Shown here: in pieces, positions 8,738 through 47,397 of the stretch
Position numbering within the stretch: the first letter of the stretch is position 1
Layout: each line of letters starts with the position of its first letter
DNA from: Alistipes sp.
GTDB lineage: Bacteria; Bacteroidota; Bacteroidia; Bacteroidales; Rikenellaceae
Length of the DNA: 64,000 nucleotides
Assembly: GCA_017416915.1 (NCBI GenBank)
Contig: JAFQAN010000036.1
Span: 11,334-75,333, forward strand
Reading direction: 5' to 3'
Position numbers and translations under genes: made by a program
Notes under the pieces: generated by a model
Seen by the model: the letters and a program-made list of their open reading frames with translations, nothing else
What the model was told of the DNA's origin: nothing
Databases searched by the model: none

Positions 8738-9342
8738 GGGACTTTGAGACTACGAGACGACGGGACTACGGGACCACGAGACCCCAGAAAAACACAGGCG
8801 TTCTCAGCCGTTCCCAGCCGTTCCCAGCCGTACGAGGCAGTGCGCTATCACCACGCTCCCAAGCGAGATGAATTTTTGTTAGAAGGGGTTAGATGTGGTG
8901 CTATCCCGAAAGATGGCTGGATGGGGGTTTACTTGGGCGTACATCCCCATTCAGACAGATGAGGGTAGTGCCGCAGATGACCCCTTATCACAAAAATTGC
9001 TTGGCGTCAGAAGGGCGCCGAGTGCTACGCTCGACAAAAGATGCCGCCGATGGACATTCTCTCTCTCCCTCTCCCGCGCACGAATTTAGTGTCAGAAGTT
9101 GTAAGATGTGGTGCATCACAAAAGAGAACCCCGCGGGATAGTACTATGTAGTACAGCCCACGGGATTCTACTTTTTGGGATGTGCCGCAGATTGCAGCTT
9201 ATCACACTAAATGACATTTTTGATTAGAGGGCTGCTTATACAACGCTCGACAAAAGATGCCGCCGATGGGTAGTACTTGCGCGTACGTCCCATTGGCGGC
9301 ATCTTTGTTAGCGGCAGTAGAAGTCTGCCCTATGATTGAAAA
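8738..9342 (+). repeat. Mosaic repeat locus 2: 8-mer/core/10-mer unit plus four tandem hairpin modules
   Basis: Core at 8787-8799. Hairpins at 8871-8998, 8999-9057 (left half only), 9084-9212 and 9216-9343. Lies between convergent GH13 and tnaA. Confidence 0.9.
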
Positions 9343-10716
9343 TTATAGGCGCTCGAGCTTAACAGTAAAGTGACGCATCAACTCGGTCTCCCATACAATC
9401 TTCACACCACGTGTAATCTCGTGACGACGATCATATACGTTCTTCAACGCTGCGGCGATAACGTCCATATGGTTGTTGGTGTATGAACGACGTGCGATGC
9501 ACAAGCGCAACAAGTCGAGACCACCAAAACGGTTCTCACGGGTTACGGGGTCGCGGTCAGCGAGGATGTAGCCAATCTCGCAGCCACGTACACCTGCCTC
9601 CAAGTAAAGCTCAATAGCGAGGGTCTGTGCGGGGAACTCCTCCTTAGGAATGTTGCTAAGCACCTTGTCGGCATCTACGAAGATGGCGTGGCCACCTACG
9701 GGACGCTGGTAAGGAATACCGTACTCGTCGAGCTTAGCTGCGAGGTACTGCACCTGCTTGATACGTGTCTCGATAGTGGGAAGCTCGGTGTTCTCGTCCA
9801 AGCCTACTGCCAAAGCTGCCATATCGCGACCGTTCATACCACCATAGGTAAGGAAGCCCTCGAAGGGGATACAGAAGCGCTTAGCACCCTCGTACCAATC
9901 CTCGTGGCGTGTAGCGATGAAGCCACCCATATTTACCAAGCCGTCCTTCTTTGACGACATTGTCATACCATCGGCATAAGAGAACATCTCCTTGCAAATC
10001 TCCTTGATGCTCTTATCTGCGTAGCCCTCCTCGCGGGTCTTGATGAAGTATGCGTTCTCAACGAAACGTGCTGAGTCGAATACCACGCGCTTGCCATACT
10101 TGTCGGCGATAGCACGTACCTCACGGAGGTTCTTCATTGATACGGGCTGACCACCTGCGGTGTTGTTGGTAATGGTAACGATGATGAAGGGAATCTTCTC
10201 GGCGTTCTCTGCCAATGCCTTCTCCAACTTAGCGGGATCTACCTCGCCCTTGAAGGGAATCTCGAGCTGAGTATCCTTCGCAGCGTCGATGGTACAGTCC
10301 AAAGCGGTAGCCTTGCGGAACTCGATATGACCCTTAGTGGTGTCGAAGTGCGAGTTGCCAGGGATGATGTCGCCAGCCTTTACAAGGTGTGAGAACAACA
10401 CGTTCTCAGCAGCACGACCCTGGTGAGTAGGGATAACATACTCGAAGCCTGTAATCTTGAAGATAGTCTCTTTAAGCTCGAAGAATGACTTTGAACCAGC
10501 ATACGCCTCGTCGCCAGTCATCATTGCTGCCCACTGACGGTCGCTCATAGCGCCAGTACCCGAGTCGGTAAGGCAGTCGATGTAAACCTGCTCAGACTTC
10601 AAACCGAAGAGGTTGTAGTGTGCCTCTTTGAGCCACTGCTCACGCTCCTCGCGAGTACTCATACGCAAGGGCTCAACCATCTTGATACGGTACGATTCTG
10701 CAAATGGAAGTTTCAT
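9343..10716 (-). CDS. tnaA: Tryptophanase
   Basis: Beta-eliminating lyase with PLP motif MSSKKD. Residues HFDTT, CEIG and RHFT match tryptophanase rather than tyrosine phenol-lyase (FTTT, MERG, RFFT). Confidence 0.88.
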   Translation of the reverse strand: MKLPFAESYRIKMVEPLRMSTREEREQWLKEAHYNLFGLKSEQVYIDCLTDSGTGAMSDRQWAAMMTGDEAYAGSKSFFELKETIFKITGFEYVIPTHQGRAAENVLFSHLVKAGDIIPGNSHFDTTKGHIEFRKATALDCTIDAAKDTQLEIPFKGEVDPAKLEKALAENAEKIPFIIVTITNNTAGGQPVSMKNLREVRAIADKYGKRVVFDSARFVENAYFIKTREEGYADKSIKEICKEMFSYADGMTMSSKKDGLVNMGGFIATRHEDWYEGAKRFCIPFEGFLTYGGMNGRDMAALAVGLDENTELPTIETRIKQVQYLAAKLDEYGIPYQRPVGGHAIFVDADKVLSNIPKEEFPAQTLAIELYLEAGVRGCEIGYILADRDPVTRENRFGGLDLLRLCIARRSYTNNHMDVIAAALKNVYDRRHEITRGVKIVWETELMRHFTVKLERL

Positions 10717-10811
10717 AGTTGTAGTTTTTTTGTTTATTAATAATTTAGTAATTTATTCTTTTTTGATCTCTCTTTGCACCCTCATTCCCCTATTTTATAG
10801 GGTATCTGCGA

Positions 10812-10819
10812 CAAAGGTA
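10812..10819 (-). promoter_or_regulatory. -7 promoter element for tnaA
   Basis: tacctttg on the minus strand, about 95 nt upstream of the ATG. Confidence 0.55.
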
Positions 10820-10910
10820 TGCAAAAATATAGTCAAATGCAAGCCCGCGTCGAAAATATTTTCATTTTCCCTTTTTGGGTTGCAGACGATGCTATTCGTC
10901 GAGTTTAGCT

Positions 10911-11912
10911 TTATTGTTTTTTCACTAACAGTTCCAATATCTGTATGGCGTTAAGTGCTGCACCCTTGCGAATCTGGTCTGCAACGCACCAGAAGGTGAT
11001 GCCGCGCTCGTTTGTGAGGTCCTTGCGCAGACGACCCACATATACGGGGTTGCTGCCCTGAGCGTACAGGGGCATAGGGTAGCGCTTCTCGGCTGGCTCG
11101 TCGATAAGCACGATGCCCTCAGCCTTAGCAAAGGCGTCGCGCACGTCGCTGAGGTTAAGCTCCTCCTCGGTCTCTACCCATATCGCCTCGGAGTGGGCGC
11201 GCATAACGGGAACACGTACACACGTTGCCGAGGTGCGGATGTCGGAGTGCATAATCTTACGTGTCTCGTAGAACATCTTCATCTCCTCCTTGGTGTAGTC
11301 GTTGTCCTGGAATACGTCGATGTGGGGTATGAGGTTATAGGCGAGCTGGTAGGCGAACTTCTCGACCTTAGGCTCACGGCCCTCGACTATGGCGCGGTGC
11401 TGCTCCTCGAACTCCTGCATAGCCGATGCTCCTGCGCCACTTGCCGACTGGTAGGTGGCGACGTGGACGTGCGTGATGTGCGACAGTCGCTCGATAACAC
11501 CCAGAGCCACAACCATCTGTATTGTTGTGCAGTTGGGGTTTGCTATGATGTGGCGCGGTGCATTAAAGGCATCCTCGCCATTGACCTCGGGAACGACCAG
11601 AGGCACGTCCTCGTCCATACGGAAGGCGCTCGAATTATCAATCATAAAGGCACCATACTTGGTGATGGTGTCGGCATACTCCTTCGAGGTTGATGCGCCT
11701 GCCGAGCATAGAGCGACATCTATGTCCTTGAAGTCGTCGTTGTGTTGTAGCTCACGCACGACAATATCCTCGCCACGGAAGCGGTATGTCGTCCCTGCGC
11801 TACGTTTCGAACCGAAGAGGCGTAGCTCCTCGATAGGCATCGGATGTGATTCCAATATTGAGAGAAACTCCTGTCCCACTGCGCCACTTGCGCCAACAAT
11901 TGCAATCTTCAT
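10911..11912 (-). CDS. asd: Aspartate-semialdehyde dehydrogenase
   Basis: [49 protein letters not shown]. Confidence 0.97.
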
Positions 11913-12093
11913 ATCTCTAATATTTTAATGGTTAAACACTTCGTTTTTTATATGCTCCTTAGTGAGCCTAAAACTACATTTTTATTCTTTTATTCTTTAT
12001 TCGACCGTGGATGTCTTCTCATTCGCCCGTTATTCGCCCGCGGATGTCTGCGAGGTTGGCAAAATTGCACCTTTGCCAACCGCACACCCTCTG

Positions 12094-14604: not shown

Positions 14605-17583
14605 TTAAAATGGAAGACCTATGCCAAACGAGACGTACATCTTGCCGTCGGTCTTCGGGTTGTAGGGCGACTGCTTGTAGTATAACGAGAGCGTCGCCGC
14701 TATTGTAGCTGCCTGCGGCATACCAAAGAGGTTTAGGTCGGCGGTGATGTCGCCACCGTAGGACCATATATGCTCGCGGCGGTATTTTATGGCACCCTGG
14801 CTATCGACGGCACACATACGCCTAAACGAGGCGTAGTCGCCACCGATGTTGAGCCTCAGTCGCTTGAAGTATATCACGCCGCGCCACCCCCCGTCGGGAT
14901 ACCATAGCGGCAGTTGGTAGTTGAGCGATGTCGCCACGTAGTTGTCGTTCTCGATGTCGTACGACGAGAAGCCTCGCGGCAGCAGACGTGTCGATTTGAA
15001 CGCCAACCCCGAGCGCACCGTGGGCGAGTAGAAGCCACCCAAGGATGTCTGGTACGACGCCGCTAACGATAGCGAGTGGTGCTTCGCGAAGCCTGGCGTG
15101 TAGAGTTTGGCATACGCCACTGCTAAGTGTCCGAAGTCGTTGGTGGTGGGGTTGAGGGCGTAGGATGCCGATACCACCACACCCCACGGTGGCAGGAAGT
15201 CGCGGTGTGCCTGGCGCACAGTGTTCTGGTATGTTATGCCCGTCTGCAACAGATGCACACCCTCGGTGTAGCCTATCGTCTCGAAGTTCTGTATCTTGCC
15301 ACCATCGAATATCAGCCTATCGACATTCGCAACCATACCGTTCGAGAAGTCCCACGACGCCGTGAGCGACAGCTGCGAGGTGTGGTAGCCGTGCTGGAAC
15401 ATCAGCGGCAGTGTAGCCCCCGCGCCTATGGCGTAGTACTTGCCGCGCTTGGGCGCTTCGGGGAAGACAAGCTCGCTCTTCTCGGCATCCCACCGATATA
15501 CGGTGTGTATGTTCTGCGTGCCGCCGTATGTACCCTTTACCCATAGGTTTACGCCTAAGCCGTTGTAGCGTATCATACCCTTGAATACCGAGCCTTCATC
15601 CCTGTTCCAGCCCCACGTTAAGAAACCCTCCATCGTCGAGAGGATGTTCTGCGAGAGTATCGTGGCGCCGAGGTTAAACGATATTCGCGACTCCTCCACA
15701 AGCTCGTAGGGGTCGTACGAGGCGGGCGCCCAGCTGTGTATGTTGAAGGCGTGGGCAAAGCGCTTGAAGCGGCGTGGTGGTGTCCTGCTGAGGATGCTAT
15801 CCTTTATGGCGCTGTCGAAGCGTACCGTATCTAAGTTTACCACATCCCACTCCTTGATTTCGGGCAGCAGTATCTTGGGCGGGTGTGGTGCGTAGGGCTG
15901 CTCCACAGCACCCTCGGTACTCTGCACCACGGGGAGGTAGCCCTCGCGGCTATACGAGGTGGCGATAAGCGTTGTGCTATCCTTGGGCGACGGCATAAAT
16001 GAGCCGTACTTCGATGTAGATAGTCGGTACTCTCGCCCCTTGGTAAGGTCGTAGCTGTGCAGCTCGTCGCGTCCCGAGGCTATCGAGCCGAAATATAGCA
16101 CTCCGTCGGCAGCTCGTAGGTTGCTTAGCGTGGTGTATGTAGGCTCGGTAATCTGCTCCAAGCCCTCGTCCGTGAGGCGCGCTATGTGCATACCCCTATC
16201 GTCGGTAAGGAGCAGGTATAGCGCCTCGGTACTATTGTCCCACGCCATACCGTGTACCTCCTTGTCGGTGGGCAGGGTTGCCACTCTCTTTGCGCTGCCC
16301 TCGGCGGTGCTTATGATGGAGTATGAGCCATCCAAGCTATACTCCACCCACGCTATGCCGCGGCTCTCCATAGGCGTTGCGTATAGGGCATTCTTACTCT
16401 GGCGGATGGTGCGTGTGCGGCGCGTTTTGAGGTCCATATATCGCACCTTCGACCCCACCTTCTCGGCAAAAAGCAGGCTGCGACGGTACTCCGTCCACCA
16501 TAGGCGGCGTGTGTCGCTGAGCATCGGGCGCGATGAGAGCATACCCGTATATATGATGCGCTCTTGGTTGCCGAGGCTGTCGGTGAAGACAAATGCCGAG
16601 GGGGTGTCGAGGTCGCTTTTGAGCGCTATGAAGCCGTCGTCGAGGGCTATGGGGTAGTCGTAGCGCGTATGGCTCTTGATGGCGGGTATGGCGAGCGGCT
16701 GTGTGGTCTGCTCCACGTCGTCTAACTCGTCCCAGTGGGTTGCCAACGTGCGGAAGGTATCGTAGAAGAGTCGCGGAATGGAGCTGCCGTATAGGCGTTT
16801 GAGCATCCACGATGTCGATACAACCATATAGGGGCGACGTACCGACAGCTCGGCGATGTCGTTGCCCATCACCCGCCCAAAGCTATTGTAGCCGTGGCGA
16901 CACATCATATATCCGAGGGTGTAGTGGTCGGGGATGTAGTCTTTATACGAGCCACAGAACCACTTGTCGATGTTACGGAACTCCTCCGCGATGTTGCCAT
17001 AGGAGCGGTATGTGAGCGAGAATGACGGTTGCATACCGCGTCCGAAGGTGGACATCGCCGTCTCGGTCATCACCGCGTCGCCCTCCATCATCCATAGCGG
17101 CATAAAGAGTAGCCCTATTGTCGAACTCTGCTGACCGATGACATAGCTTAGCCCCTTGATAAGTCCTCGGTTGAGGTTATTGTACTGCACGGCGTGGCGA
17201 TATTCGTGTGCTATGAGCTGCTTTATCCACGGCATCGAGTAGCCGTCGGCCTCGGGTGTAGAGAGGAACTCTACGCGCTTTGGCAGCCACATAACAAGTC
17301 CGTTGGAGAGCATATTTGCGGGGTGTACCACGAAGGGTATCGACATCTGCGGATACTTATACCCAAAGCTGATGTCGTCGCTCACAGCATCCAAATAGTG
17401 CATCATTTTTTCTCCAACAATTTGTGCTGTGTCGGGGTAAATAACCCTGTATTTTTCGCTTTTCATCTGTCGCCAGCGATACGATGTCGGATCGACACCC
17501 CAACTGTAATATTGGGCGTGCGCTCTCTCTGCGACAAGTAATGCGCAGATAGCCAACAAGATATGTATCGTCAAGCGTTTCAT
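14605..17583 (-). CDS. Secreted/outer-membrane protein: HExxH peptidase-like domain, beta-propeller and putative C-terminal beta-barrel
   Basis: Signal peptide; IAHEYRH and PLWMMEGDA; propeller-like middle; amphipathic strands ending in terminal Phe (VSFGIGLPF). Confidence 0.6.
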   Translation of the reverse strand: MKRLTIHILLAICALLVAERAHAQYYSWGVDPTSYRWRQMKSEKYRVIYPDTAQIVGEKMMHYLDAVSDDISFGYKYPQMSIPFVVHPANMLSNGLVMWLPKRVEFLSTPEADGYSMPWIKQLIAHEYRHAVQYNNLNRGLIKGLSYVIGQQSSTIGLLFMPLWMMEGDAVMTETAMSTFGRGMQPSFSLTYRSYGNIAEEFRNIDKWFCGSYKDYIPDHYTLGYMMCRHGYNSFGRVMGNDIAELSVRRPYMVVSTSWMLKRLYGSSIPRLFYDTFRTLATHWDELDDVEQTTQPLAIPAIKSHTRYDYPIALDDGFIALKSDLDTPSAFVFTDSLGNQERIIYTGMLSSRPMLSDTRRLWWTEYRRSLLFAEKVGSKVRYMDLKTRRTRTIRQSKNALYATPMESRGIAWVEYSLDGSYSIISTAEGSAKRVATLPTDKEVHGMAWDNSTEALYLLLTDDRGMHIARLTDEGLEQITEPTYTTLSNLRAADGVLYFGSIASGRDELHSYDLTKGREYRLSTSKYGSFMPSPKDSTTLIATSYSREGYLPVVQSTEGAVEQPYAPHPPKILLPEIKEWDVVNLDTVRFDSAIKDSILSRTPPRRFKRFAHAFNIHSWAPASYDPYELVEESRISFNLGATILSQNILSTMEGFLTWGWNRDEGSVFKGMIRYNGLGVNLWVKGTYGGTQNIHTVYRWDAEKSELVFPEAPKRGKYYAIGAGATLPLMFQHGYHTSQLSLTASWDFSNGMVANVDRLIFDGGKIQNFETIGYTEGVHLLQTGITYQNTVRQAHRDFLPPWGVVVSASYALNPTTNDFGHLAVAYAKLYTPGFAKHHSLSLAASYQTSLGGFYSPTVRSGLAFKSTRLLPRGFSSYDIENDNYVATSLNYQLPLWYPDGGWRGVIYFKRLRLNIGGDYASFRRMCAVDSQGAIKYRREHIWSYGGDITADLNLFGMPQAATIAATLSLYYKQSPYNPKTDGKMYVSFGIGLPF

Positions 17584-17633: not shown

Positions 17634-17990
17634 TTTTTGTGATAAGGGGCTATCTGCGGCGCTATGATACAAGTTGCCCCGCGCAGCTGGGGATGGCTGA
17701 GAACGACTGGGAAAGACTGAGAATGACTGAGAATGGCTGTGTTTTTCAGGGGACTACGGGACTACGGGACTTCGGGATATTGCGGGATATTGCGGGATAT
17801 TGCGGGATATTGCGGGCGATGCCCGCATTTTTCGCAGACGTGTAGTCTCGTCGTCTCGTGGTCTCGTGGTCTCGTCGTCCCGTGGTCCCGTCGTCTCGTT
17901 GGCGCGCCCTCAGGCGTTCTCAGGCGTTCTCAGTCTTTCTCAGGCATTCTCAGCCAATCGCGCCCCCCACCTATGCGTATCTAAGCTAAC
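17634..17990 (-). repeat. Mosaic repeat locus 3: half hairpin, inverted 10-mer/core, (ttgcgggata)x4, 8-mers, ggcgcgcc, 10-mers
   Basis: gtgataagggg at about 17639; inverted core at 17735-17747; arrays read directly from sequence. Confidence 0.88.
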
Positions 17991-18027: not shown

Positions 18028-18032
18028 CCCTG

Positions 18033-18105
18033 AGCCTTGAGGGGGACTCGAACCCCCGACCCCTTCATTACGAATGAAGTGCTCTACCGACTGAGCTATT
18101 AAGGC
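18033..18105 (-). tRNA. trnT: tRNA-Thr(CGT)
   Basis: GCCTTAATAGCTCAGTCGGTAGAGC-A-CTTCA-TTCGTAA-TGAAG-GGGTC-GGGGG-TTCGAGT-CCCCC-TCAAGGC-T cloverleaf; CCA not encoded. Confidence 0.95.
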
Positions 18106-22877: not shown

Positions 22878-23128
22878 ATTTGTTGTGATAAGGGGTCATC
22901 TACTGCCGCTAACGAATTATCTCGCCAATGGGCAGTACGTTCAAGTACAGCCCATCGGCTCGAAATTCGCCGAGCGTTGTATCTGACGCCCTTCTGACAA
23001 CAAATTGCCTTGCACTGCTGAGAACGCCTGAGAAAGACTGAGAAAGACTGAGAACGCCTGTGTTTTTCAGTGGACTTAGGGTATCTCGCAGTCCCGTGGT
23101 CTCGTGGTCCCGTAGTCTCGCAGTCCTG
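22877..23128 (-). repeat. Mosaic repeat locus 4 (inverted): full hairpin 22877-23006, 10-mers, core, 8-mers
   Basis: aatttgttgtgataag...cttctgacaacaaatt; inverted core at 23056-23068. Confidence 0.92.
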
Positions 23129-23198
23129 CGGTTTTATCGCTCCTGTGGTAAGCGCGCTAAGAGCTACAACGAAACAAAAATTAAACGATATAGACAAA

Positions 23199-23777: not shown

Positions 23778-23778
23778 T

Positions 23779-26812: not shown

Positions 26813-27049
26813 GGGAATTTAGAGAATTTAGAGAGGTTAGGGAGCGCACTGCCTCGCACGACTGGGAACGACTGAGAATGCCTGGGAATGCCTGTGTTTT
26901 TCTGGGGTCCCGTGGTCTCGCAGTCTCGTGGTCTCGTGGTCCCGCAGTGCCGCCGATAAAGAGATTGGGCTGGATGGATAGTACTTGACGTACATTCCAT
27001 TCAGCCCAATGATTGAGGCGGCGCTGATGCGCCGCTATCACAACAAATT
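26813..27049. repeat. Mosaic repeat locus 5: 9-mers, inverted 10-mer/core/8-mer unit, hairpin lacking its left terminus
   Basis: Inverted core at 26890-26902; hairpin 26946-27049 ends ctatcacaacaaat. Confidence 0.88.
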
Positions 27050-27050
27050 T

Positions 27051-27584
27051 TTATTCTGCAAATATAGCCGCAAAATTAGGATCATCGGCAACCTTCATCA
27101 TCGCCTCCATCATCTCCTGCTCATACTCAGCCATGATATTGTCAGCAACCTGCTGATCTCTCTCGTCCAAAGCGTCGTACCAAGAGTTGCACTCCTCAAA
27201 AGTTGCGGCAAATGCCTCAGCATCGCCATTGTCAATGGCTTCGAGCATCTGCATAGCGTAGTTGTCAGCTATCTCGCCAGTGGTGAAGCCTCCGCAGCCG
27301 AGGTCATCCTCGTACTCCTCCTCAAACTCGCCTGCGAGCTGAGCCTCATACTCCTCGATAGCTGCATCAGCCTTAGCCTTATCCTCCTCGCTAAGACCGT
27401 TATACCAAGTCTCAATCTCGGTGAGGAGCTTCAATGCTGCCTCAGCGTCATCGCCCTCAGAAACCTTCTCCATCTGCTCGTAGTAAGCCTTTACCTGCTC
27501 CTCTACGGTAAGCTCCTTCTTCTTCTCGCCACCGCAAGCAACCAGCATTGCAGCAGCCACCATTATCGCTAAAAGTCTTTTCAT
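27051..27584 (-). CDS. Acidic lipoprotein with two copies of a ~50-aa helical domain
   Basis: Lipobox LVAC-GGEKK; internal repeat GD.EA.....E...WY..L.E.D...AD.....Y. Confidence 0.75.
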   Translation of the reverse strand: MKRLLAIMVAAAMLVACGGEKKKELTVEEQVKAYYEQMEKVSEGDDAEAALKLLTEIETWYNGLSEEDKAKADAAIEEYEAQLAGEFEEEYEDDLGCGGFTTGEIADNYAMQMLEAIDNGDAEAFAATFEECNSWYDALDERDQQVADNIMAEYEQEMMEAMMKVADDPNFAAIFAE

Positions 27585-29657: not shown

Positions 29658-29669
29658 GAGAGACGATTG

Positions 29670-30124
29670 AGCGAGAGCGGCTGAGAGGCGCGCGATTGAC
29701 TGAGAAAGAGTGGGTGGCGCGCAATTGACTGAGAACGCCTGAGAAAGACTGAGAAAGACTGGGAAAGACTGAGAATGACTGGGTGGCGCGCCAACCGAGA
29801 CAACGAGACGACGGGACGACGGGACTACGGGACTACGGGACTGCGAGACTGCGAGACCACGGGACGACGAGACCACGAGACCACGAGACCACGAGACCGC
29901 AATACCCCAAAAAAACACAGTCGTTCTCAGGCATTCTCAGGCATTCTCAGTCGTGCGTGGCCGTGCGTGGCTGTACGTGGCAGCTTGGCGTCAGAGTGGT
30001 GTAGATGTGTTCTATCGCAAAAGAGAGTGCCGTGGGATAGTACTAAAACGTACAGCCCACGGCACTCTACTTTTTGGGATAGGACGCAGATGCGCCGCTA
30101 TCACGTCAAGCTATCACGCCAAGC
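29670..30124 (+). repeat. Mosaic repeat locus 6: ggcgcgc caps, inverted 10-mers, 8-mer array, core, 10-mers, full hairpin 29983-30111 and a duplicated right terminus
   Basis: Core at 29909-29922; ...ctatcacgtcaag-ctatcacgccaagc. Confidence 0.92.
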
Positions 30125-30127
30125 ACC

Positions 30128-30421
30128 TTACATTGATGCCTCAATATTCCACACAAACGCCCTCGACCCCTGCTGCTTGGTCGTCGAATCTATCTCGCGC
30201 AACGCATCCATAAGCACGGGAATCTTCTCATCCTCAACAATAGCGAGTATCGATGAGTTCATCGAGGGCCACGCGTGAGTGCCATAGTGAGGCTCTCCAT
30301 CATAGGTGCCGCGTCCCTCGGTCAGCGCCCAGCGTGTGAAGCCACGCACACCATTCTCGTCGAGCATACGGTCGATACGGTCGGTAAGCGCCTGGTTGTA
30401 TGATACAAAAAATGCTTTCAT
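30128..30421 (-). CDS. PG0541-family small transporter-associated protein (P-II-like)
   Basis: RGFTRW...GRG..GEPHYGTHAWPSMNS; last gene of the RND operon. Confidence 0.75.
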   Translation of the reverse strand: MKAFFVSYNQALTDRIDRMLDENGVRGFTRWALTEGRGTYDGEPHYGTHAWPSMNSSILAIVEDEKIPVLMDALREIDSTTKQQGSRAFVWNIEASM

Positions 30422-36854: not shown

Positions 36855-36879
36855 AAGTTTTTTTGAGGGGGGGGGAAAT

Positions 36880-37434
36880 GCTGGGTGGCGCGCGATTGAC
36901 TGGGAATGGCTGAGTGGGCGCGCGATTGACTGAGAATGACTGAGAACGACTGAGAACGACTGGGTGGCGCGCCGACGGGACTACGGGACTACGGGACTGC
37001 GAGACTACGAGACAACGAGACTGCGAGACTGCGGGACAACGAGACTACGAGACTACGAGACTACGAGACTGCGGGACCACGGGACCACGGGATACCCTAA
37101 AAAACACAGGCGTTCTCAGGCATTCTCAGGCGTTCTCAGTCGTGCAAGGCAGTACGTGGCTGCGCGAGGCAGCTTGGCGTCAGAGTGGTGCAGTAGTACC
37201 GCCGATAAAGAGATTGGGCTGGATGGATAGTACTGTGCGTACATTCCATTCAGCCCAATGATTGAGGCGGCGCTGATGCGCCGCTATCACGCCAAGCAAC
37301 GACAAGGGCTTGGTGTGAGAAGGGCGCCGAGTGCTACACTCGGCAAAAATGCCGTCGATGGGTAGTACTAAGACGTACGTCCCATTGACGGCATTTTTTG
37401 TTAGGGGACGCAATCGACCCCTTATCACGCCAAG
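36880..37434 (+). repeat. Mosaic repeat locus 7: caps, inverted 10-mers, long 8-mer array, core, 10-mers, two full hairpins (37172-37297, 37308-37434)
   Basis: Core at 37099-37111; the second hairpin ends 1 nt before the POT transporter stop codon. Confidence 0.93.
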
Positions 37435-37435
37435 A

Positions 37436-38986
37436 CTATGCGTTGGTTACACGCTCCAACCACTTAACCATACCAAGCATTACGCCCATAGAGATAAGGC
37501 AGACTGCGAGGAATACGGTCCAGCAGATCCAGATAGGCACTGCGTTATACATAAGCGGACCAATCCAGAGAAGGAGGTTACCCACCGCCGTAGCACCAAG
37601 CCACAAGCCCTGGCAGAGACCGAGCATATGCTTAGGAGCCACCTTCGACACAAACGACAGACCGAGCGGCGAGATAAACAACTCGGCAACAGTAAGGAAG
37701 AAGTAGAGTACGAAGAGTACCCACGGTCCTGCAAGCTCAACACCATTTGCACGTGCATCACTGGCTGAGGGGTAACCCTCAACAAACGAGAAGCCTGCAA
37801 GGAAGAGGTAAGCCATACCTGCGATAGCCATACCGATAGCAATCTTTCGGGGCGTAGAGATATAGATATTACGCTTAGCCAACGCGCCGAAGATATACAT
37901 AATCACGGGGGTAAGGACAATCACATAGAAGGGGTTAAGGGCCTGCCATACCTCGGGAGCTACGCTATCCGACTTCACAAAGTCGCGTGCGAACATCGAG
38001 AGCGAAGTACCGTTCTGGTGGAATGCAAACCAGAAGAAGATAGCGATGCCGAGTACTGCAAAGAGTGCATAGAGACGCTGCTTAATCTCCTTAGCTGCTG
38101 CCTTACGCTCCTCGGGAGTGTAGGTAACATTTGCAGCTGCCACCTTCTTAGCGGGAGTCGGGAACTTCTTACGAGTAGAGATAAAGATGGTAAGCGAGAT
38201 AAGCATTGCAGCCACCGAAGCGATGAACGAGTAGTGGATACCCTCGTTGAAAATCTGCAAGTAGTCATTGCTGAACGTTGCAATATCGGCGATAGGAGCG
38301 TCGCTGAGCGTAGCGCCATTAGCCGTCTCAACAAACTTGTCGAAGTTTGCCATCTCAGCGCCATTAGCATTGAAGTCGTGGCAGAGTGCGGGGAGCTGTG
38401 CGTTGTAGGTCATATCGTGAGCCTTCAACCACCACTCACGCAACAGCGGAGCAACAAACGGAGCGATGACACCACCAATGTTGATAAATACGTAGAAAAT
38501 CTGGAAACCAGAGTCGCGCTTCGACTTAGCCTCTTTCAGAGCAGCCTCGCCCTTCTTGGCTGCCTCAGCTTCGAGGTCATCGTACATCTGACCTACGATA
38601 GCCTGCAAGTTACCCTTGAACAGACCGTTACCGAAGGCTATCACAAAGAGTGCAAAGCAGGTAAGGGGCAACAACCAGCCCTGATTACCATCTGTTGCAA
38701 GAATAGGAATAGACAGCACCACATAACCTGCCGCCATAACCATAAGACCTGCCATAATAGTACCCTTGTAGTTCTGGGTCTTATCGGCAATCATACCGCC
38801 GACAAGTGCCAAGATGTAGATACCTGCATAGAAGAATGAGTAAACCAACGAGCTGGTCTCCTCGCTCAAACCGAACTTCGAGCAGAGGAACAGCACGAGG
38901 ACTGCATTCATAATGTAATAGCCGAAACGCTCACCCATATTACTGAGTGCCGCAGCTAAAAGACCTTTGGGGTGTCCTTTGAACAT
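37436..38986 (-). CDS. POT/PTR family di/tripeptide:H+ symporter
   Basis: MGERFGYY, GNGLFKGN, FYVFINIG, AELFISPLGLS. Confidence 0.93.
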   Translation of the reverse strand: MFKGHPKGLLAAALSNMGERFGYYIMNAVLVLFLCSKFGLSEETSSLVYSFFYAGIYILALVGGMIADKTQNYKGTIMAGLMVMAAGYVVLSIPILATDGNQGWLLPLTCFALFVIAFGNGLFKGNLQAIVGQMYDDLEAEAAKKGEAALKEAKSKRDSGFQIFYVFINIGGVIAPFVAPLLREWWLKAHDMTYNAQLPALCHDFNANGAEMANFDKFVETANGATLSDAPIADIATFSNDYLQIFNEGIHYSFIASVAAMLISLTIFISTRKKFPTPAKKVAAANVTYTPEERKAAAKEIKQRLYALFAVLGIAIFFWFAFHQNGTSLSMFARDFVKSDSVAPEVWQALNPFYVIVLTPVIMYIFGALAKRNIYISTPRKIAIGMAIAGMAYLFLAGFSFVEGYPSASDARANGVELAGPWVLFVLYFFLTVAELFISPLGLSFVSKVAPKHMLGLCQGLWLGATAVGNLLLWIGPLMYNAVPIWICWTVFLAVCLISMGVMLGMVKWLERVTNA

Positions 38987-41229: not shown

Positions 41230-42135
41230 ATGAATATCAGGACAATATTTCTGTTTTGCAGCGCTGCAATACTACTTACCTGCTCGTGCGGCAACTCATC
41301 GAGTAGCACCCCCGCCGAGACACCCGTCGATATGTCGGCAACTGCCGTTACAGCACCCGTCGAGGAGGAGCCTACGGGCGATAGCCGCCTCGCGGAGCAT
41401 ATCGTAATCTCGAAGGAGGCGATGACGCTCAAACTCTACGACAGCCAGCAGCGCCTCATCTGCTCATTCCCCGTTGCAGTAGGCAAAAACCTCGGTAATA
41501 AGCGCCGCTCGGGCGATATGAAGACCCCCGAGGGCGAGTTTAAGGTGCAACAGATACAGCCCGCCTCGCACTGGACACACGACTTCGGCGATGGCAAGGG
41601 CGTCATCGAGGGGTGCTACGGCAACTGGTTTATACGCCTCGAAACGCCACCCCACCGCGGCATAGGCATCCACGGCACACACGACCCCGCCTCTATCGGC
41701 ACACGTGCTACGGAGGGGTGCATACGCCTACATAACAACGACTTGGATAGCCTCAAACCTATGGTTAAGGTGGGTATGCGCGTAACTATCGAGACGTCGG
41801 TAGCCGACCGCAACGAGGATAACCGCATCGACGGCAAGCCCGTAACCGAGGAGAAGCCCGTGGTGGATGTAACCCCCGTAGCGAGCGAGAGCGTAGCAGC
41901 CGAAACTGCTTCTAACGATGCAGCGAAGAGCGAAGAGAGCGCCAAAACGCCCGCCACCGATAGCCGACCGACAAATAACGGTGCGTCGGGCGAGGTATGG
42001 CACACAATTGAGAGTGGCGATATGATTGGTGCGCTCGCCATTAAGTATGGTGTTACGGAGGAGCAAATACGCGAACTCAACCCTGGGTTGAATGAGCGTC
42101 GCCTGCAACTCGGACAGCGCGTGAGAATTAAGTAG
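41230..42135 (+). CDS. L,D-transpeptidase (YkuD) lipoprotein with C-terminal LysM
   Basis: GIGIHGT...TEGCIRL; HTIESGDMIGALAIKYG...LQLGQRVRI. Confidence 0.88.
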   Translation: MNIRTIFLFCSAAILLTCSCGNSSSSTPAETPVDMSATAVTAPVEEEPTGDSRLAEHIVISKEAMTLKLYDSQQRLICSFPVAVGKNLGNKRRSGDMKTPEGEFKVQQIQPASHWTHDFGDGKGVIEGCYGNWFIRLETPPHRGIGIHGTHDPASIGTRATEGCIRLHNNDLDSLKPMVKVGMRVTIETSVADRNEDNRIDGKPVTEEKPVVDVTPVASESVAAETASNDAAKSEESAKTPATDSRPTNNGASGEVWHTIESGDMIGALAIKYGVTEEQIRELNPGLNERRLQLGQRVRIK

Positions 42136-42154: not shown

Positions 42155-42446
42155 GAGCGGCTGAGAGGCGCAACCACGAGACTGCGAGACCACGAGACTG
42201 CGGGACTGCGAGACCACGAGACTACGAGACTGCGAGACTGCGGGACCACGAGACCACGAGACCACGAGACTGCGAGACCTCTGAAAAACACAGTCTTTCT
42301 CAGGCGTTCCCAGTCGTTCTCAGGCATTCTCAGTCTTTCTCAGGCGTTCTCAGTCATTCCCAGGCGTTCCCAGTCATTCCCAGTCGTTCTCAGTCGTGCG
42401 AGGCTGTGCGAAGCTGTGCGAGGCATTGCCCCTTATCACGCCAAAG
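42155..42446 (+). repeat. Mosaic repeat locus 8: 8-mer array, core, 10-mer array, hairpin right tip
   Basis: Core at 42283-42295; ends ccccttatcacgccaaag. Confidence 0.92.
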
Positions 42447-42612: not shown

Positions 42613-42769
42613 ATGAACAAACAGACATTTATCGTGGGGGGGGGGAAGCCACAACCTCTACGAAGCTCCCGAGATGGAGATTGTTGCAGTAAATGCCGAG
42701 TTCGGTATGGAGGCAAGCTCTGACCCCACCCAGACCGAGGATTACGACAACGGAATTTTTGAGTGGTAA
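42613..42769 (+). pseudogene. Small YxxP-type peptide interrupted by a G10 tract (phase-variable or frameshifted)
   Basis: With 9 G the ORF reads MNKQTFIVGGGSHNLYEAPEMEIVAVNAEFGMEASSDPTQTEDYDNGIFEW* (12 G adds one Gly). With the observed 10 G it is out of frame. Confidence 0.65.
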
Positions 42770-42791
42770 ACCTATTAAAACAACAAGAACA

Positions 42792-44129
42792 ATGAAAAAG
42801 ATTTATGCATTTTTGATGTCGGCAGTTGCTTTGGTAGGCTTCGCCGCTTGCTCTGAGGGTCTTAACGAGATTACCGTGAACGGTAACGATAACACCACAG
42901 AGGTAACTCTCTTCGCAGAGTTTGAGGATGATACACGTATGACACTTAACGGCAACACCCCCGAGTGGGAGAAGGGTGATGTTATCTACATCAACGGTGT
43001 AGAGTTCACCGCACAGGAGGCAGGTAGCGCCGTACAGTTCAAGGGCACTGTTACGGAGGATATGATTGGTCAGGCTTACACCGCATATTTCGGCACTAAG
43101 GATGGCAAGGTTGCTGCCGAGCAGACTGCTGTTGCGGGACATATGTCGAAGGAGACCCCCGCAACTGCTGAGATTGCAGCTTTTGAGAGCGGTATGACAA
43201 TCTCGTTTAAGAACGCTGCTGCACTGTTGCAGTTCACCCCCTCGTTCTCGGGCGATGTACTATTTGAAATTATTAATGGCGAAACTATTACGCTCAAAGG
43301 TTGCGAGGCAGGCAAGACCTACTACGCTGCCGTAACCCCCGCAACGTGGGATGGTGGCGTACAGGTGTCATCAGACAACCTCCTTTGCAAGTCAGGCGCA
43401 AAGGGTCAGCTTATCGAGCGCAACAAGATTTATCCATTAGGCAACCTCGACCGCAAAACAGCAACCACAGCACTTTGGGGTGTTTGCGGTGTCCACAACG
43501 AGTGGGGTAATGCAGGCGAGGATGTTTTGATGTATGAGGATGGCAACTACTATGTATCGGTAGGTGTTAAGCTTGGTGGCGAATTCAAGATTCGTAAAGA
43601 CAACTCGTGGGGTTCAAATTACGGCTGTGATGCTACCGCAGCAGTAGGCTCATACGGAGAATACAGCATAGGCAGCGACTATGGCGGTAACTTCCAGGTT
43701 GCAGACACAAATTTGAGATACACTATTAAGATGTCGAAAGATTTCAAGCAACTGATAGTATGCGCAACTGGCTATGCTCAGGAGAGCGAGTATTCTATTA
43801 TTGGTGCAAACGGCAACTGGAACTATGACAACTACTTTATGAATACCTCTGTAAGCAACGTCATCGTCGCAAAGAAGGTAAAGATTACCACAGATGTAGG
43901 TGTTAAAATTAGATATGAAGGTGGATGGGGCTCGTCTTGGTCTTGCGATTGGAAAGCATTAAAGGTTAATACTAAGTTGCTCTGCCGCAAGGGCTATGAC
44001 TGCAATATGTTGTTTGCTGATGGTAGCAGTGATTGGAACAAGGAGTACGATATTTATGTGCAACTTGTCAGCGGTGCTCCCAGTGAGTTCATCATCGTGC
44101 CCACAGGAAATGCAGCTCCTACATTCTAA
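42792..44129 (+). CDS. Surface lipoprotein: fimbrillin-like N-terminal part plus two SusE/SusF-like C-terminal domains
   Basis: MKKIYAFLMSAVALVGFAAC; WGVCGVHNEWG...GEFKIRKDNSWGSNYG; YSIIGANGNW...VKIRYEGGWG. Confidence 0.65.
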   Translation: MKKIYAFLMSAVALVGFAACSEGLNEITVNGNDNTTEVTLFAEFEDDTRMTLNGNTPEWEKGDVIYINGVEFTAQEAGSAVQFKGTVTEDMIGQAYTAYFGTKDGKVAAEQTAVAGHMSKETPATAEIAAFESGMTISFKNAAALLQFTPSFSGDVLFEIINGETITLKGCEAGKTYYAAVTPATWDGGVQVSSDNLLCKSGAKGQLIERNKIYPLGNLDRKTATTALWGVCGVHNEWGNAGEDVLMYEDGNYYVSVGVKLGGEFKIRKDNSWGSNYGCDATAAVGSYGEYSIGSDYGGNFQVADTNLRYTIKMSKDFKQLIVCATGYAQESEYSIIGANGNWNYDNYFMNTSVSNVIVAKKVKITTDVGVKIRYEGGWGSSWSCDWKALKVNTKLLCRKGYDCNMLFADGSSDWNKEYDIYVQLVSGAPSEFIIVPTGNAAPTF

Positions 44130-44151
44130 TTGAGCGCATTTGCAAAAACTC

Positions 44152-44186
44152 ACAGCTCGGCTCTAAGGGGTCGAGCTGTTTTTTTT
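44152..44186 (+). terminator. Intrinsic terminator
   Basis: cagctcg...cgagctg followed by T8. Confidence 0.8.
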
Positions 44187-44400
44187 GCGAGACGACGAGA
44201 CGACGAGACGACGAGACGACTGAGAACGACTGAGAATGCCTGAGAATGCCTGTGTTTTTTAGGGTATCCCGTGGTCCCACAGTCCCGCAGTCCCGTGGTC
44301 CCGCAGTCCCGTGGTCTCGTAGTCTCGTAGTCCCGCAGTCCCGTGGTCCCGTGGTCTCGCACCACCCGCACATCCATAAACTCCATAAACTCCCTAATCA
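44187..44400 (-). repeat. Mosaic repeat locus 9: 8-mers grading into 10-mers, inverted core, 8-mer array, 9-mers
   Basis: (gagacgac)4-tgagaacgac-(tgagaatgcc)2-tgtgtttttt; core at 44248-44260. Confidence 0.92.
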
Positions 44401-44425
44401 ACCACTCACTTTGAACAATTTTTTA

Positions 44426-44433
44426 TATCTTTG
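44426..44433 (+). promoter_or_regulatory. -7 promoter element for the ABC transporter
   Basis: tatctttg. Confidence 0.55.
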
Positions 44434-44454
44434 CAAAAAATATCAGTACAGATT

Positions 44455-45384
44455 ATGAAGGATATTATTCTCAGCATAGAGGGTGTCTCGAAGAGCTACA
44501 CGGGACATACAGCCCTCGATGACGTGTCGTTGGAGATACCGCGCGGTGCGGTATATGGTCTTTTGGGTCCCAACGGCGCAGGTAAGACCACGCTGATACG
44601 TGTCATCAACCGCATAACGCTTGCCGACAAGGGGCGTGTGCTGCTCGAAGGCAAGCCTATGACCGAGAGCGACGTATTCCATATAGGCTATATGCCCGAG
44701 GAGCGCGGTCTCTACAAGAAGATGCGTGTGGGTGCGCAAGCACTCTTCTTCGCGCGCCTCAAAGGTCTCGACAAGCGCGAGGCGGAGCAGAGGCTACACA
44801 GCTGGTTTGAGCGTTTAGGCATCGCCGACTGGTGGGGCAGAAAGGTAGAGGACCTATCGAAGGGTATGGCGCAAAAGGTACAGTTCATATCGACCGTGGT
44901 ACACGAGCCTAAGCTGCTGATATTTGACGAGCCATTCTCGGGCTTCGACCCCATAAATGCCAACGCTCTGAAAAACGAGATTCTCGGACTACGCGACCGC
45001 GGCGCCACGGTGATATTCTCGACACACAATATGGCATCGGTGGAGGAGATATGCGACCATATAACGCTTATCAACAAGTCGCGCAACATCCTCTCAGGCT
45101 CGGTGGAGGAGATACGCCGTGCGGCGGGAGGCAACACCTTCGAGGTGATACATCGCGCCGACGATAGTACGCTGAGTGCCGCCTTGGGCAGCTTCGCTAC
45201 GACACTCGGCGCAAGCGAGGGCATCGTGGGCGGATATACCCGCACAAAGATACATATCCCCAACGACAACGACATCCGCGAGGTGATAGCGCGCCTCAAC
45301 GACAGCTGCTCGATGCGCTCGTTGCAGGAGATGATGCCCTCGATGAACGATATATTTATTCGCGCGGTAAACGGAACACTCTAA
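44455..45384 (+). CDS. ABC-2 type transporter ATP-binding protein
   Basis: GPNGAGKTT, LSKGMAQK, LIFDEPFSG. Confidence 0.95.
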   Translation: MKDIILSIEGVSKSYTGHTALDDVSLEIPRGAVYGLLGPNGAGKTTLIRVINRITLADKGRVLLEGKPMTESDVFHIGYMPEERGLYKKMRVGAQALFFARLKGLDKREAEQRLHSWFERLGIADWWGRKVEDLSKGMAQKVQFISTVVHEPKLLIFDEPFSGFDPINANALKNEILGLRDRGATVIFSTHNMASVEEICDHITLINKSRNILSGSVEEIRRAAGGNTFEVIHRADDSTLSAALGSFATTLGASEGIVGGYTRTKIHIPNDNDIREVIARLNDSCSMRSLQEMMPSMNDIFIRAVNGTL

Positions 45385-45387
45385 CCT

Positions 45388-46671
45388 ATGAAAAAGATTC
45401 AACTTATAATAGCTCGCGAGTTCGGCGAGCGCGCTCGCAAGAAGTCGTTTATTATCACGACCTTGCTGATGCCGATATTGATGATAGGATTGATGATAGC
45501 GCCATCGCTGATGATGCTTATGGATACCGCCGAGCAGAAGCAGGTGGTGGTCATCGACCGCTCGGGCGTTGTTGGCGACAAGCTGCAAAGTGGCGGCGAG
45601 GTGCTATTCTCGGTGCAGAACGACCTCTCGAAGGCGGAGGCGTGTAGCATCTATGGCGAGGATAGCGGCATCTTCGGCATCCTATACATAGGTAGCGAGG
45701 TGGAGCATCGCGACTCGGTGCAGCTTATCACAAACTCATCATCGTCGATGATGTTGGAGGAGAATATCGCCTCGCAAATATCGGCGATAGTCGAGGCGGA
45801 GAAGCTCAAAGCCTACAACATCGATAACCTCGACCAGATACTCGCCTCGGTGGCGACAAATATCGAGCTTAGCACCTTCGAGAACAACGGCACAGGCGAG
45901 GTGGAGACGATGGAGAGTACGTCGTCGGGCATAAACTACATCTTGGGTATGCTGCTCGGTATGCTACTCTATATGATTATCATCATCTACGGACAGATGG
46001 TGCTAACATCGGTTGTCGAGGAGAAGTCGAGCCGCGTCATAGATGTTATGGTAACGAGCTGTACGCCCTTCCAGATTATGATGGGTAAGATTCTCGGCAT
46101 CGCCCTTGTCGCCGTTACGCAGATTGCCATCTGGGCTGTGCTTGTCATCGGCGCGTCGAAGTTCCTTATCCCCGCGCTCTTCTCGCCAGAGGTGGCGGCA
46201 ACAAACGATATGATGATGCAGGCGCTGATGGGTACCCTCGGCAATACGTCATATATTGCGGGTCTGTTTGGCTACCTGCTGCTCTTCATCCTCGGCGGCT
46301 TCCTGCTCTACGCATCGCTCTACGCTGCGGCAGGCTCGGCGGTCGATTCGGTGCAGGATGGTCAGCAGTTCAACACGATAATTATGATGCCTATAATCTT
46401 GGCACTTATCGTGATGATGTCGGTCTTCAACGACCCCAACTCGTCGGTGGCGTTCTGGTTCTCAATAATACCCTTTACCTCGCCAATAGTGATGATAGCG
46501 CGCATACCATTTGGCATCCCCACGTGGGAGGTTGTGGTGTCGTTGGTGCTGCTATATGCCACCTTCCTCTTTGTGGCGTGGTTTGCCGCCAAGATATATA
46601 GAATAGGTATCTTTATGCACGGCAAGCGTCCCTCGTGGCGCGAGCTGTGGCAGTGGACCAAGATGAAGTAG
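45388..46671 (+). CDS. ABC-2 type transporter permease (NatB-like)
   Basis: VVEEKSSRVIDVM, IPFTSPIVMIARI; multiple TM segments. Confidence 0.92.
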   Translation: MKKIQLIIAREFGERARKKSFIITTLLMPILMIGLMIAPSLMMLMDTAEQKQVVVIDRSGVVGDKLQSGGEVLFSVQNDLSKAEACSIYGEDSGIFGILYIGSEVEHRDSVQLITNSSSSMMLEENIASQISAIVEAEKLKAYNIDNLDQILASVATNIELSTFENNGTGEVETMESTSSGINYILGMLLGMLLYMIIIIYGQMVLTSVVEEKSSRVIDVMVTSCTPFQIMMGKILGIALVAVTQIAIWAVLVIGASKFLIPALFSPEVAATNDMMMQALMGTLGNTSYIAGLFGYLLLFILGGFLLYASLYAAAGSAVDSVQDGQQFNTIIMMPIILALIVMMSVFNDPNSSVAFWFSIIPFTSPIVMIARIPFGIPTWEVVVSLVLLYATFLFVAWFAAKIYRIGIFMHGKRPSWRELWQWTKMK

Positions 46672-46689
46672 CAGAGGCGCAGGCGTTGG

Positions 46690-46862
46690 TTGTTGTCAGA
46701 AGACGAGAGATGTGGCACATCGCCAAAGAATAAAATTTGTTGTCAGAAGGCATTAGATACAACGCTCGGTGAATTTGTCGGCGATGGGCTGTACTAAAAC
46801 GTACTGCCCATTGCCGACACAATTCATTAGCGGCAGTAGATGATGCCTTATCACAACAAATT
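46690..46862 (+). repeat. Mosaic repeat locus 10: truncated left half plus full hairpin 46734-46862, without microsatellite arms
   Basis: aatttgttgtcagaaggcat...atgccttatcacaacaaatt; overlaps the kdsC stop codon. Confidence 0.9.
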
Positions 46863-47397
46863 AACGGGAGGGCACTCCAAGCACCCCCTTCATATTCTTC
46901 GCCCAGTTGCCTTGCGCTCGTAACACCTGCTCTACAATGTCGCGCACAGCACCCTTGCCGCCATTATACTCCGACACATAGCGCGACGCCTCGATAACCT
47001 CCATACAGGCGTCGGCAGGACATACAGGGATGCCCACAAGACGCATACACTCCAAATCGGGGATGTCGTCGCCCATATAGATAACATTCTCCGAATTGAG
47101 GTTGTTGGCAGCCATAAACTCATTGATAGCGGCAACCTTATCCATACAGTTAAGATACATGTCCTTGATGCCGAGCATCTCCAAGCGGCGGCGTAGCATC
47201 TCGCCACGACCTCCCGAGATGATACAAATCTTGTAACCCTCACGAAGTGCGTATGCCAAGGCGTAACCATCCTTGGCGTAGTAGAGACGTATAAAGTCGC
47301 CATCGGGCGTAGGGATGATGCTACCATCGGTCATCACCCCATCCACGTCGAAGACAAAGGCCTCGACGCGGGCTATATCTTCTTTGAAGTTTCCCAT
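46861..47397 (-). CDS. kdsC: 3-deoxy-D-manno-octulosonate 8-phosphate phosphatase (HAD IIIA)
   Basis: FDVDGVMTDG, KDGYA, YMGDDIPD, GGKGAVR. Confidence 0.9.
   Translation of the reverse strand: MGNFKEDIARVEAFVFDVDGVMTDGSIIPTPDGDFIRLYYAKDGYALAYALREGYKICIISGGRGEMLRRRLEMLGIKDMYLNCMDKVAAINEFMAANNLNSENVIYMGDDIPDLECMRLVGIPVCPADACMEVIEASRYVSEYNGGKGAVRDIVEQVLRAQGNWAKNMKGVLGVPSR

Follow-up and report, generated by a model that had tools for sequence, protein, structure and literature searches.

Hairpin repeats of a small-genome Alistipes adjoin stop codons through one end and are oriented with the GC skew

We examined a stretch of 64,000 nucleotides (nt) from an Alistipes metagenome-assembled genome (MAG), in which composites of hairpin repeats lie at the 3' ends of genes. 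This stretch, hereafter the window, corresponds to C14:11334-75333 of the source genome G000 (1.97 Mb, 42 contigs, 51.6% G+C), which groups with small-genome Alistipes MAGs by its MurA relatives. The original prediction held that the right (TATCAC) ends of these hairpins lie within a few nucleotides of the stop codons of six genes transcribed toward them, and all six junctions proved to be real. We define d as the number of nucleotides between the conserved terminus (TATCAC and the 6 nt after it) and the stop codon of the gene transcribed toward it, counted from where the terminus ends to the stop's first base. The values of d were 0 for tnaA, 1 for murA, 3 for a lipoprotein gene, 4 for a PG0541-family gene, 1 for a POT symporter gene and 0 for kdsC (Table 1). 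NCBIfam confirmed TnaA, MurA, the PG0541 family, an oligopeptide:H+ symporter and KdsC at these junctions. The three exceptions were also as originally described, with ends at 17634, 42445 and 61868 that face gene 5' ends.

Iterated nhmmer searches across the genome returned 366 hits, representing 190 distinct units. The hairpin unit is a palindrome of 124-129 nt (~126 nt), built around a central hairpin, GGGNAGTAC-N5-GTACNNCCC, and bounded by imperfect inverted ends of 16-22 nt. These ends take two forms, (G)CTTGGCGTSAGA...TATCACGCCAAG(C), also written (G)CTTGGCGTSAGAGTGG...CCGCTATCACGCCAAG(C), and AATTTGTTGTSAGA...TATCACAACAAATT, also written AATTTGTTGTSAGAAGG...CCTTATCACAACAAATT, and the outermost eight bases of the two unit ends covary. 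On their left side, units are nearly always fused to further repeat modules, either a second unit or the end of a 10-mer array, which continues into a AAAAACACAG core and then an 8-mer array to form a minisatellite. The resulting composites are mosaics of arrays and one to four units, and their distal edge is ragged, without a conserved terminus. Of 19 genomes from the genus, 10 carried the family, and it was absent from all 12 of the other Bacteroidales genera searched. Rfam, at the gathering score, gave no match to the repeats (a tRNA-Thr was its sole match in the 64-kb window), and we found no literature description of these repeats in Alistipes. The hairpins are best explained as copies of a genus-restricted, non-autonomous mobile palindromic element of small-genome Alistipes.

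Genome-wide placement was assessed on genes called with our own dicodon-scored picker of open reading frames (ORFs), which yielded 1464 genes covering 84.5% of the genome; the calls being crude, we compared each key junction with orthologues or with curated families. None of the 163 divergent gaps held a unit, whereas units were present in 52 of 159 convergent and in 55 of 1100 co-directional ones (Fisher p = 7e-19, divergent versus convergent). Among gaps measuring at least 60 nt, the respective counts were 0/140, 52/136 and 55/377, so that the avoidance of divergent gaps first noted in the window is true of the whole genome. Most outermost right ends (116/135) faced a stop and 19/135 faced a start; in co-directional gaps, it was the upstream stop that the right end faced in 40 cases and the downstream start in 12. 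By distance, 24 outermost right ends lay at d=0, three at d=-1 and 24 at d=1-4. Among the 105 right ends that faced a stop across a definable gap, 26, 47 and 62 fell at d<=0, d<=4 and d<=9, versus 2.8, 9.9 and 18.0 expected if ends were spread uniformly over whatever part of those gaps is free of repeats (repeats being masked by 13-mers, in blocks of at least 40 nt), and none of 5000 simulations reached the observed counts. Stop-to-hairpin distances, whose comparison with a shuffled null had been proposed as the check, thus depart from uniform placement. The two sides of the repeats also differed sharply: the right side had a median gap to the stop of 2 nt, with 56 of 86 within 5 nt, whereas the left side of the same composites, where it faced a stop, had a median of 60.5 nt, with 3 of 58 within 5 nt (p = 3e-14).

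Right ends away from stops often came straight after a native terminator's T-tract and had the flank CAAAAAAA (about a dozen, e.g., C6:47296, C21:6173, C31:122), and the T-tract of a native intrinsic terminator, where the transcription unit ends, is a second preferred docking position. Genes abutted by units had a higher dicodon coding score (0.605 versus 0.472 per codon, p = 1e-12), were longer, and carried C at the third position of their second- and third-from-last sense codons in ~47% of cases versus 28%. Core or highly expressed genes could account for this, as could noise in the gene calls. An extended target motif upstream of the stop was considered and rejected, as it amounted to the C excess at the third positions of the last two sense codons and looks like an effect of gene class.

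At d=0, the identity of the stop depended on the terminus that adjoined it. After a ...CAAG terminus, the next triplet was CTA in 11 cases and TTA in one; after a ...CAAA (AAA-type) terminus, it was TTA in 13 cases and CTA in none (Fisher p = 2.7e-6). On the gene strand, CAAG ends therefore correspond to TAG and CAAA ends to TAA, with junctions that read TA/GCTTGG... and T/AATTTG.... Since the last base of the stop tracks the terminus type, the first base(s) of the inverted end are the last base(s) of the stop codon, and the two overlap. YTA followed the right end in 46 of 135 cases. At d=9-23, many ends had the final 7-19 nt of the terminus repeated in partial tandem copies (e.g., CTATCACGCCAAG), the last of which abutted the stop. 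Six ORFs ran 10-13 nt into the terminus (d=-10, -13) and ended at its TGA or TAG, and the terminus GTGATAAG holds TGA and TAA in one frame. Across the G000 calls, stops were TAA in 828 genes, TAG in 568 and TGA in 68; several of the rare TGA stops (68/1464) and of the TAG stops lay inside the repeat terminus GTGATA(A/G)G.

Two other interpretations of the junction were discarded. A stop supplied by the element that truncates the protein occurs in about six genes and was rejected as the general case, because C-termini have the same position, or nearly so, in orthologues whose sites lack the element. The idea that stop and terminus together make up a Bacteroidetes -7 promoter box (TAnnTTTG) fits only d=1 AAA-type junctions, such as that of murA, and is not general.

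Comparison with related genomes revealed the same register. Among the outermost type-B units fetched from G012, G013 and G031, 10 of 16 lay at d=0; all ten of these sites combined TAA with ...AAA-type ends, eight of which were CACAAGAAA or a close variant. For the genes adjoining the relatives' type-B units, the C-terminus of the G000 orthologue lay at the same position or within two residues of it in 14 of 14 comparisons. Ten of these 14 sites are empty in G000 (six with TAA and four with TAG), and the other four are filled in G000 as well, versus ~1 expected (p = 0.008). At murA, the protein ends in RLDE* with or without the repeat, and the gap is short and empty in L001, L004 and L007. In G031, the PG0541-family gene stops at the same position as in G000. 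The POT site has a ...CAAG end and a TAG stop in G000; it is filled in G031 at d=0 by a different unit type (...AAGAAA ends, TAA), with the protein end as in G000, and it is empty in G012, where there is a normal terminator and the protein end is one residue shorter.

Comparisons could also be drawn inside the source assembly, in which contigs C34, C35 and C36 are 82-91% identical copies of parts of C9, C13 and C28. These contigs are a second strain or species binned into the MAG, which is a contamination flag and at the same time useful for comparing filled and empty sites. At one gene end, the unit type differed between strains, lying at d=0 in C36, while in C28 the ORF ended inside the terminus; a C35 unit sat on the stop where C13 has a spacer and a native terminator. 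Taken together, the strain and species comparisons indicate that the repeats turn over fast and repeatedly end on the same triplet. Type-B unit bodies were 90-96% identical between species and flanking genes 67-75% (window 37309-37434 compared with L090 and L100-L114 of G012, G013 and G031). The terminal eight bases of both unit ends were species-specific, CTTGGCGT in G000 and TTTCTTGT in the others. The near-identical bodies point to recent interspecies exchange, strong constraint or concerted evolution.

Orientation also followed base composition. With GC skew calculated from coding sequence only and averaged over both coding strands, so that the effect of the coding strand cancels out, the abutted gene's own strand (gene-sense) was the G-rich one in 80 of 87 gaps. 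The proportion was 58 of 60 among gaps with an absolute r of at least 0.02, and 31 of 32 among the convergent gaps at that threshold. The composites are themselves C-rich on the gene-sense strand (skew -0.128) and so cannot create a G-rich strand signal. As a rule, the leading strand is the G-rich one; by this rule, the abutted genes are leading-strand genes, and the strand that carries them is the lagging-strand template. Such a strand bias explains both why a single end abuts stops and why one of the two genes is chosen in convergent gaps.

The composites of the window are listed in Table 1. Their 8-mers (ACGRGACN) and 10-mers (CTCAGNCNTT) join at the AAAAACACAG core and show GGCGCGCC-type boundary motifs and decayed distal edges. 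Arrays lie at 1480-1650, 8727-8840, 29660-29980, 36875-37170, 42158-42420 and 44186-44361, and some composites fill a gap from stop to stop. Genome-wide, ~56 of the 366 raw hits (both-strand double hits included) were not assignable to a gap, and those inspected lay at contig edges (e.g., C14:21-146, C21, C22, C28, C31); the repeats appear to be a main cause of assembly breaks in the G000 MAG. In two other Alistipes, L005 and L009, a different repeated hairpin module (GGATAAGTCTGC...GGCAGAC...) lies at most ~10 nt after the murA stop, twice in L005, and may be a distant relative of the family in Alistipes with larger genomes.

Table 1. Hairpin-repeat composites of the window, their termini and the neighbouring features (a slash marks the junction of stop and repeat)
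Feature	Coordinates	Strand	Description
tnaA composite	8727..9342	+	8-mer array, AAAAACACAG core, 10-mer array and ~four hairpin units
tnaA right terminus	9331-9342		Degenerate TATGAT-TGAAAA; adjoins stop TTA 9343-9345 at d=0
murA composite, reversed	22878..23150	-	Terminus GTGATAAG 22885-22892, end 22879; 1 nt after stop TAA 22875-22877
Lipoprotein composite	26840..27050	+	Inverted array part and one left-truncated unit
Lipoprotein terminus	27035-27047		CTATCAC-AACAAA; 3 nt before stop 27051-27053
PG0541-family composite	29660..30127	+	Fills whole gap; terminal 13-mer CTATCACGYCAAG duplicated, 30098-30110 and 30111-30123
PG0541-family junction			CACC between second 13-mer and stop 30128-30130; d=4 from the duplicate, 17 from the first copy
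POT symporter composite	36875..37435	+	Type-C unit, then type-B unit
POT symporter terminus	ends 37434		TATCAC-GCCAAG; 1 nt before stop CTA 37436-37438
kdsC locus	46686..46860	+	Truncated unit and full unit
kdsC terminus	ends 46860		TATCAC-AACAAA, on stop TTA 46861-46863; gene strand TAA/TTTGTTGTGATAAGG
Exception composite (locus 3)	17634..17966	-	Right terminus GTGATAAG at 17639, directed toward the 5' end of gene 14605-17583
tRNA-Thr	18032-18105	-	Its 3' end precedes the 17634..17966 composite
Exception, array and solo right terminus	42158..42445	+	CCCCTTATCACGCCAAAG at ~42428-42445, without hairpin body; faces start of gene 42693-44129; follows stop of gene 41230-42135
Exception, array and one unit	61643..61868	+	Terminus CTATCAC 61855-61861 plus AACAAAT; faces start of gene 61954-63435; starts directly after stop of gene 60188-61630
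Array-only composite	1480..1650	+	8-mers, core and 10-mers, no hairpin unit; after stop of gene 510-1415
Array-only composite, reversed	44186..44361	-	Beyond native terminator of gene 42693-44129

We consider it probable that this distribution arose by strand-specific, polar insertion, in which the terminus of the element overlaps and rebuilds a TAR stop, followed by the loss of harmful copies. The element would enter DNA in one orientation only, on the G-rich strand (taken, as is usual, to be the leading-strand sequence and thus the template of lagging-strand synthesis). The right terminus would join at, and overlap, a TAR trinucleotide, and the first terminus base(s), G or AA, would rebuild the stop as TAG or TAA, which would leave the protein untouched. 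Insertions in coding sequence or promoter regions would be lost by selection, and the survivors would lie on the stops of G-rich-strand genes or just past their native terminators, never in divergent promoter gaps. That the chemistry acts on single strands at the replication fork, and which enzyme performs it, are what we infer beyond the observed placement, end asymmetry, stop-base dependence, preserved C-termini, turnover and orientation bias. The original prediction put forward two explanations and is upheld in part; stop-codon-targeted insertion is the one that finds support. In its favor are the exact register, the third base of the stop that tracks terminus type, the C-termini that are the same or nearly so, the different unit types found on the same stop across strains and species, and an orientation that tracks the replication strand with few exceptions.

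Several results weigh against this account. Under a null that lets insertion occur beside every TAR of a gap, d=0 should hold 37.5 ends, whereas 26 were observed, so that exact abutment alone needs no stop-codon recognition. The same null fails at d<=9, where 40.7 ends are expected versus 62 observed, and only the excess at d=1-9 therefore calls for recognition of the stop. Around 25 ends lie 2-7 nt from a stop without an adjacent YTA; with such loose spacers, either the register is not strict or junctions were remodelled later. Filled and empty gaps were too diverged between species for a target duplication or an exact distal boundary to be defined. Replication direction was taken from contig GC skew, with no mapped origin, and the gene calls came from our own simple caller.

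The search for a mobilizing enzyme belongs with these points. Profile PF01797 (Y1) matched neither G000 nor any of 12 congeners, among them six carriers of the element; other Bacteroidales genomes and 6 of 14 controls did give matches in that search. PF00078 (reverse transcriptase) was absent from G000 and from most element-bearing genomes, PF04986 (Y2) had no match in a search whose controls were also silent, and TIGR02249 (integron integrase) gave only Xer-like matches below the cut-off, in 20 of 20 genomes. G000 yielded no autonomous copy flanked by the element's ends, and no solo ends bound an ORF there (other genomes were searched non-exhaustively); nor did it have multi-copy ORFs resembling those of insertion sequences (IS). 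All carrier genomes are incomplete MAGs (81-96% complete), so a single-copy enzyme gene could be missed, and absence is not proof. Two further ideas were set aside on these searches. Retro-element or RNA 3'-end-mediated insertion, raised by the ends that follow terminator T-tracts, was rejected because reverse transcriptase is absent from most element-bearing genomes. IS91-type rolling-circle transposition, raised by the combination of one sharp and one fuzzy end, found no Y2 match, which is weak evidence given the silent controls.

More tentatively, the element may belong to an undescribed class of single-strand, hairpin-form elements that home to leading-strand stops at the fork and rebuild the stop, with a mover other than a Y1 or Y2 HUH enzyme, a reverse transcriptase or an integron integrase; we regard this as possible but rather unlikely. 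Candidate movers would be the two Xer-like tyrosine recombinases of G000, one of which is encoded in the window (~53508-54605, - strand), acting on a folded strand by analogy with CTX-phage and attC, or an enzyme that has escaped recognition. If an undescribed class is involved, the near-identical body in ~70% identical species would mean recent interspecies spread or domestication as a portable terminator.

The main rival account puts function first. It holds that the units are portable 3'-end modules (terminators, mRNA stabilizers or translation-termination modulators, similar to repetitive extragenic palindromic [REP] sequences of E. coli) that land anywhere after genes, and that selection, together with deletion of redundant spacer or native terminator, brings them flush with the stop. 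The predicted RNA structures are in keeping with such a role. For gene-sense RNA of five loci in the window, predicted folding energies run from -51 to -67 kcal/mol (z -5 to -9), and the outer stem begins 0-2 nt after the stop, so that a terminating ribosome would have to open it. An A-run and a T-run flank the inner stem in all 29 type-B units and in most type-A units, resembling a bidirectional terminator; runs of at least 4 on the gene-sense side were present in 29/29 type-B, 24/36 type-A, 0/30 type-C and 8/66 other units. E. coli hairpins near stops reportedly affect mRNA stability and translation, a result attributed to Liang, Rudd and Deutscher in 2015. Judged from such sequence features, a role in the 3' untranslated region, or a secondary one at the 3' end, is plausible for the hairpins.

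Further observations are compatible with function first. Maximal compaction that merges TA with G, or T with AA, would also make the stop base track terminus type, and the G000 genome is small and compact. The conservation of unit bodies across species whose genes are 67-75% identical, the four sites filled both in relatives and in G000, and the ORFs that end within the terminus (d=-10, -13) can all be counted on its side. However, compaction should affect both sides of a composite, yet the left side keeps a median of 60 nt and its native terminators, and in G031 (POT), C35 and L103 a native terminator survives just beyond a unit located 0-5 nt from the stop. Types A and B make up ~40% of full-length units, and the remaining ~60% (type C and unclassified) mostly lack a U-tract; a simple terminator scan flagged none of the units. 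Selection on RNA function would not readily produce the 97% replication-orientation bias of convergent gaps, and 19 outermost ends face promoters. As the origin of the pattern, function first therefore seems doubtful to us; polar insertion and 3'-end function may nonetheless both apply, in sequence.

It is more improbable still that the repeats are miniature transposable elements with inverted repeats (MITEs) that a DDE transposase preferring TA or YTA targets mobilizes in trans (Correia, IS630 or IS5 type), with stop codons simply as the sole places at gene ends that contain TA and tolerate insertion without harm. The ~126-nt size, the covarying imperfect inverted ends of 16-22 nt, the frequent YTA after the right end (46/135) and the lack of excess abutment under the TAR-restricted null all suit a MITE. 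Against this, neither the single unit in G031 nor the tandem junctions (CAAG-N-GCTTGG) showed a TA or YTA duplication at the other end, and the left flanks of units are not TA. A symmetric MITE should abut stops with either end, and only the right end does so (56/86 versus 3/58), while orientation tracks the replication strand in 80 of 87 gaps; moreover, neither a transposase-bearing parent nor multi-copy IS ORFs were found in G000. An artefact of gene calling or chance, in which ORFs end near repeats because the termini hold stop triplets (as the TGA and TAA in GTGATAAG, the six ORFs that end inside a terminus and our own simple caller might suggest), is already refuted by the orthologue comparisons, in which stops match the C-termini at element-free sites in 10 of 10 cases; in addition, the conserved terminus does not include the stops, curated families cover the six genes of the window over their full length, no simulated placement attained the counts observed, and the pattern recurs in three other species.

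If polar insertion with stop rebuilding holds, the Alistipes repeats offer a clean natural case of a mobile element that spares its host by landing on one rebuildable gene-end triplet and on one replication strand. There are also practical consequences. For annotation, 89 of 1464 genes (~6%) have a unit end within 23 nt of the stop, and in some of them the repeat supplies the stop; for assembly, many contigs break within units. For expression, many housekeeping genes of this common gut genus have a predicted stem of -50 to -67 kcal/mol that starts at their stops. No known single-strand transposase was found, and which enzyme mobilizes the units is therefore a concrete, testable question.

Set beside known systems, the element falls outside REP/RAYT, IS200/IS605, Correia-type MITEs and integron attC sites by the features that define each. 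Integron attC sites are recombined as folded single strands in a manner that depends on the replication strand. Like the Alistipes units, they are imperfect palindromes (57-141 nt) whose ends are conserved most, and they lie directly after, and often overlap, the stop of the preceding ORF. In contrast to integron cassettes, the genes that flank the Alistipes units are syntenic housekeeping genes; the units lack RYYYAAC/GTTRRRY boxes, and no integrase above the cut-off accompanies them. The Correia elements of Neisseria (CREE/NEMIS) and the ERIC/IRU repeats of enterobacteria, some of which act as terminators or processing sites, share the format of hairpin MITEs of 100-155 nt with inverted ends, hundreds of copies and transcription together with their neighbours. 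Correia elements, however, duplicate TA and occur in either orientation, whereas the Alistipes element showed no duplication at the junctions compared, places one end on stops and is strand-specific.

The likeness to IS200/IS605 elements and their gene-less derivatives (PATEs), as in IS608 and ISDra2, lies in the folded ends; a short flank at one end only (YTA beside the right end) and the lack of an evident target duplication, as seen at the single G031 unit and at tandem junctions, may be further points in common. IS608 and ISDra2 are published cases of elements that target the lagging-strand template (PMC6006769), and such an orientation bias is the hallmark of insertion into single-stranded DNA at the fork (PMC6006769, PMC5027513); the strong replication-relative orientation bias of the Alistipes units is consistent with lagging-strand-template insertion of this kind. 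In IS200/IS605, however, the hairpins are subterminal, there are no inverted ends and TnpA (Y1) is needed, whereas the Alistipes element has inverted ends of 16-22 nt, no Y1 was found in the genomes searched, and its conserved flank is only a TAR that overlaps the terminus.

The REP/BIME/REPIN-RAYT systems, including GTAG-tagged and SMAG-type repeats, are similarly high-copy extragenic palindromes that form mosaic composites on the 3' sides of genes and are absent from divergent gaps, and a single-strand chemistry is suspected for them as well. The earlier analogy with E. coli REP sequences therefore stands for behavior and falls for membership, as the Alistipes repeats have no GTAG foot and no RAYT gene. 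REP sequences measure 20-40 nt and carry a GT[AG]G foot, whereas the Alistipes unit is ~126 nt long, has long inverted ends in place of such a foot, is fused to 8-nt and 10-nt minisatellites, has no RAYT gene in G000 or the 12 congeners and resides in a Bacteroidota host. Stop-supplying behavior is already known for REP termini, which can provide the TAG stop of a flanking ORF (PMC3733652), and the Alistipes element is a variant of this behavior with features of its own.

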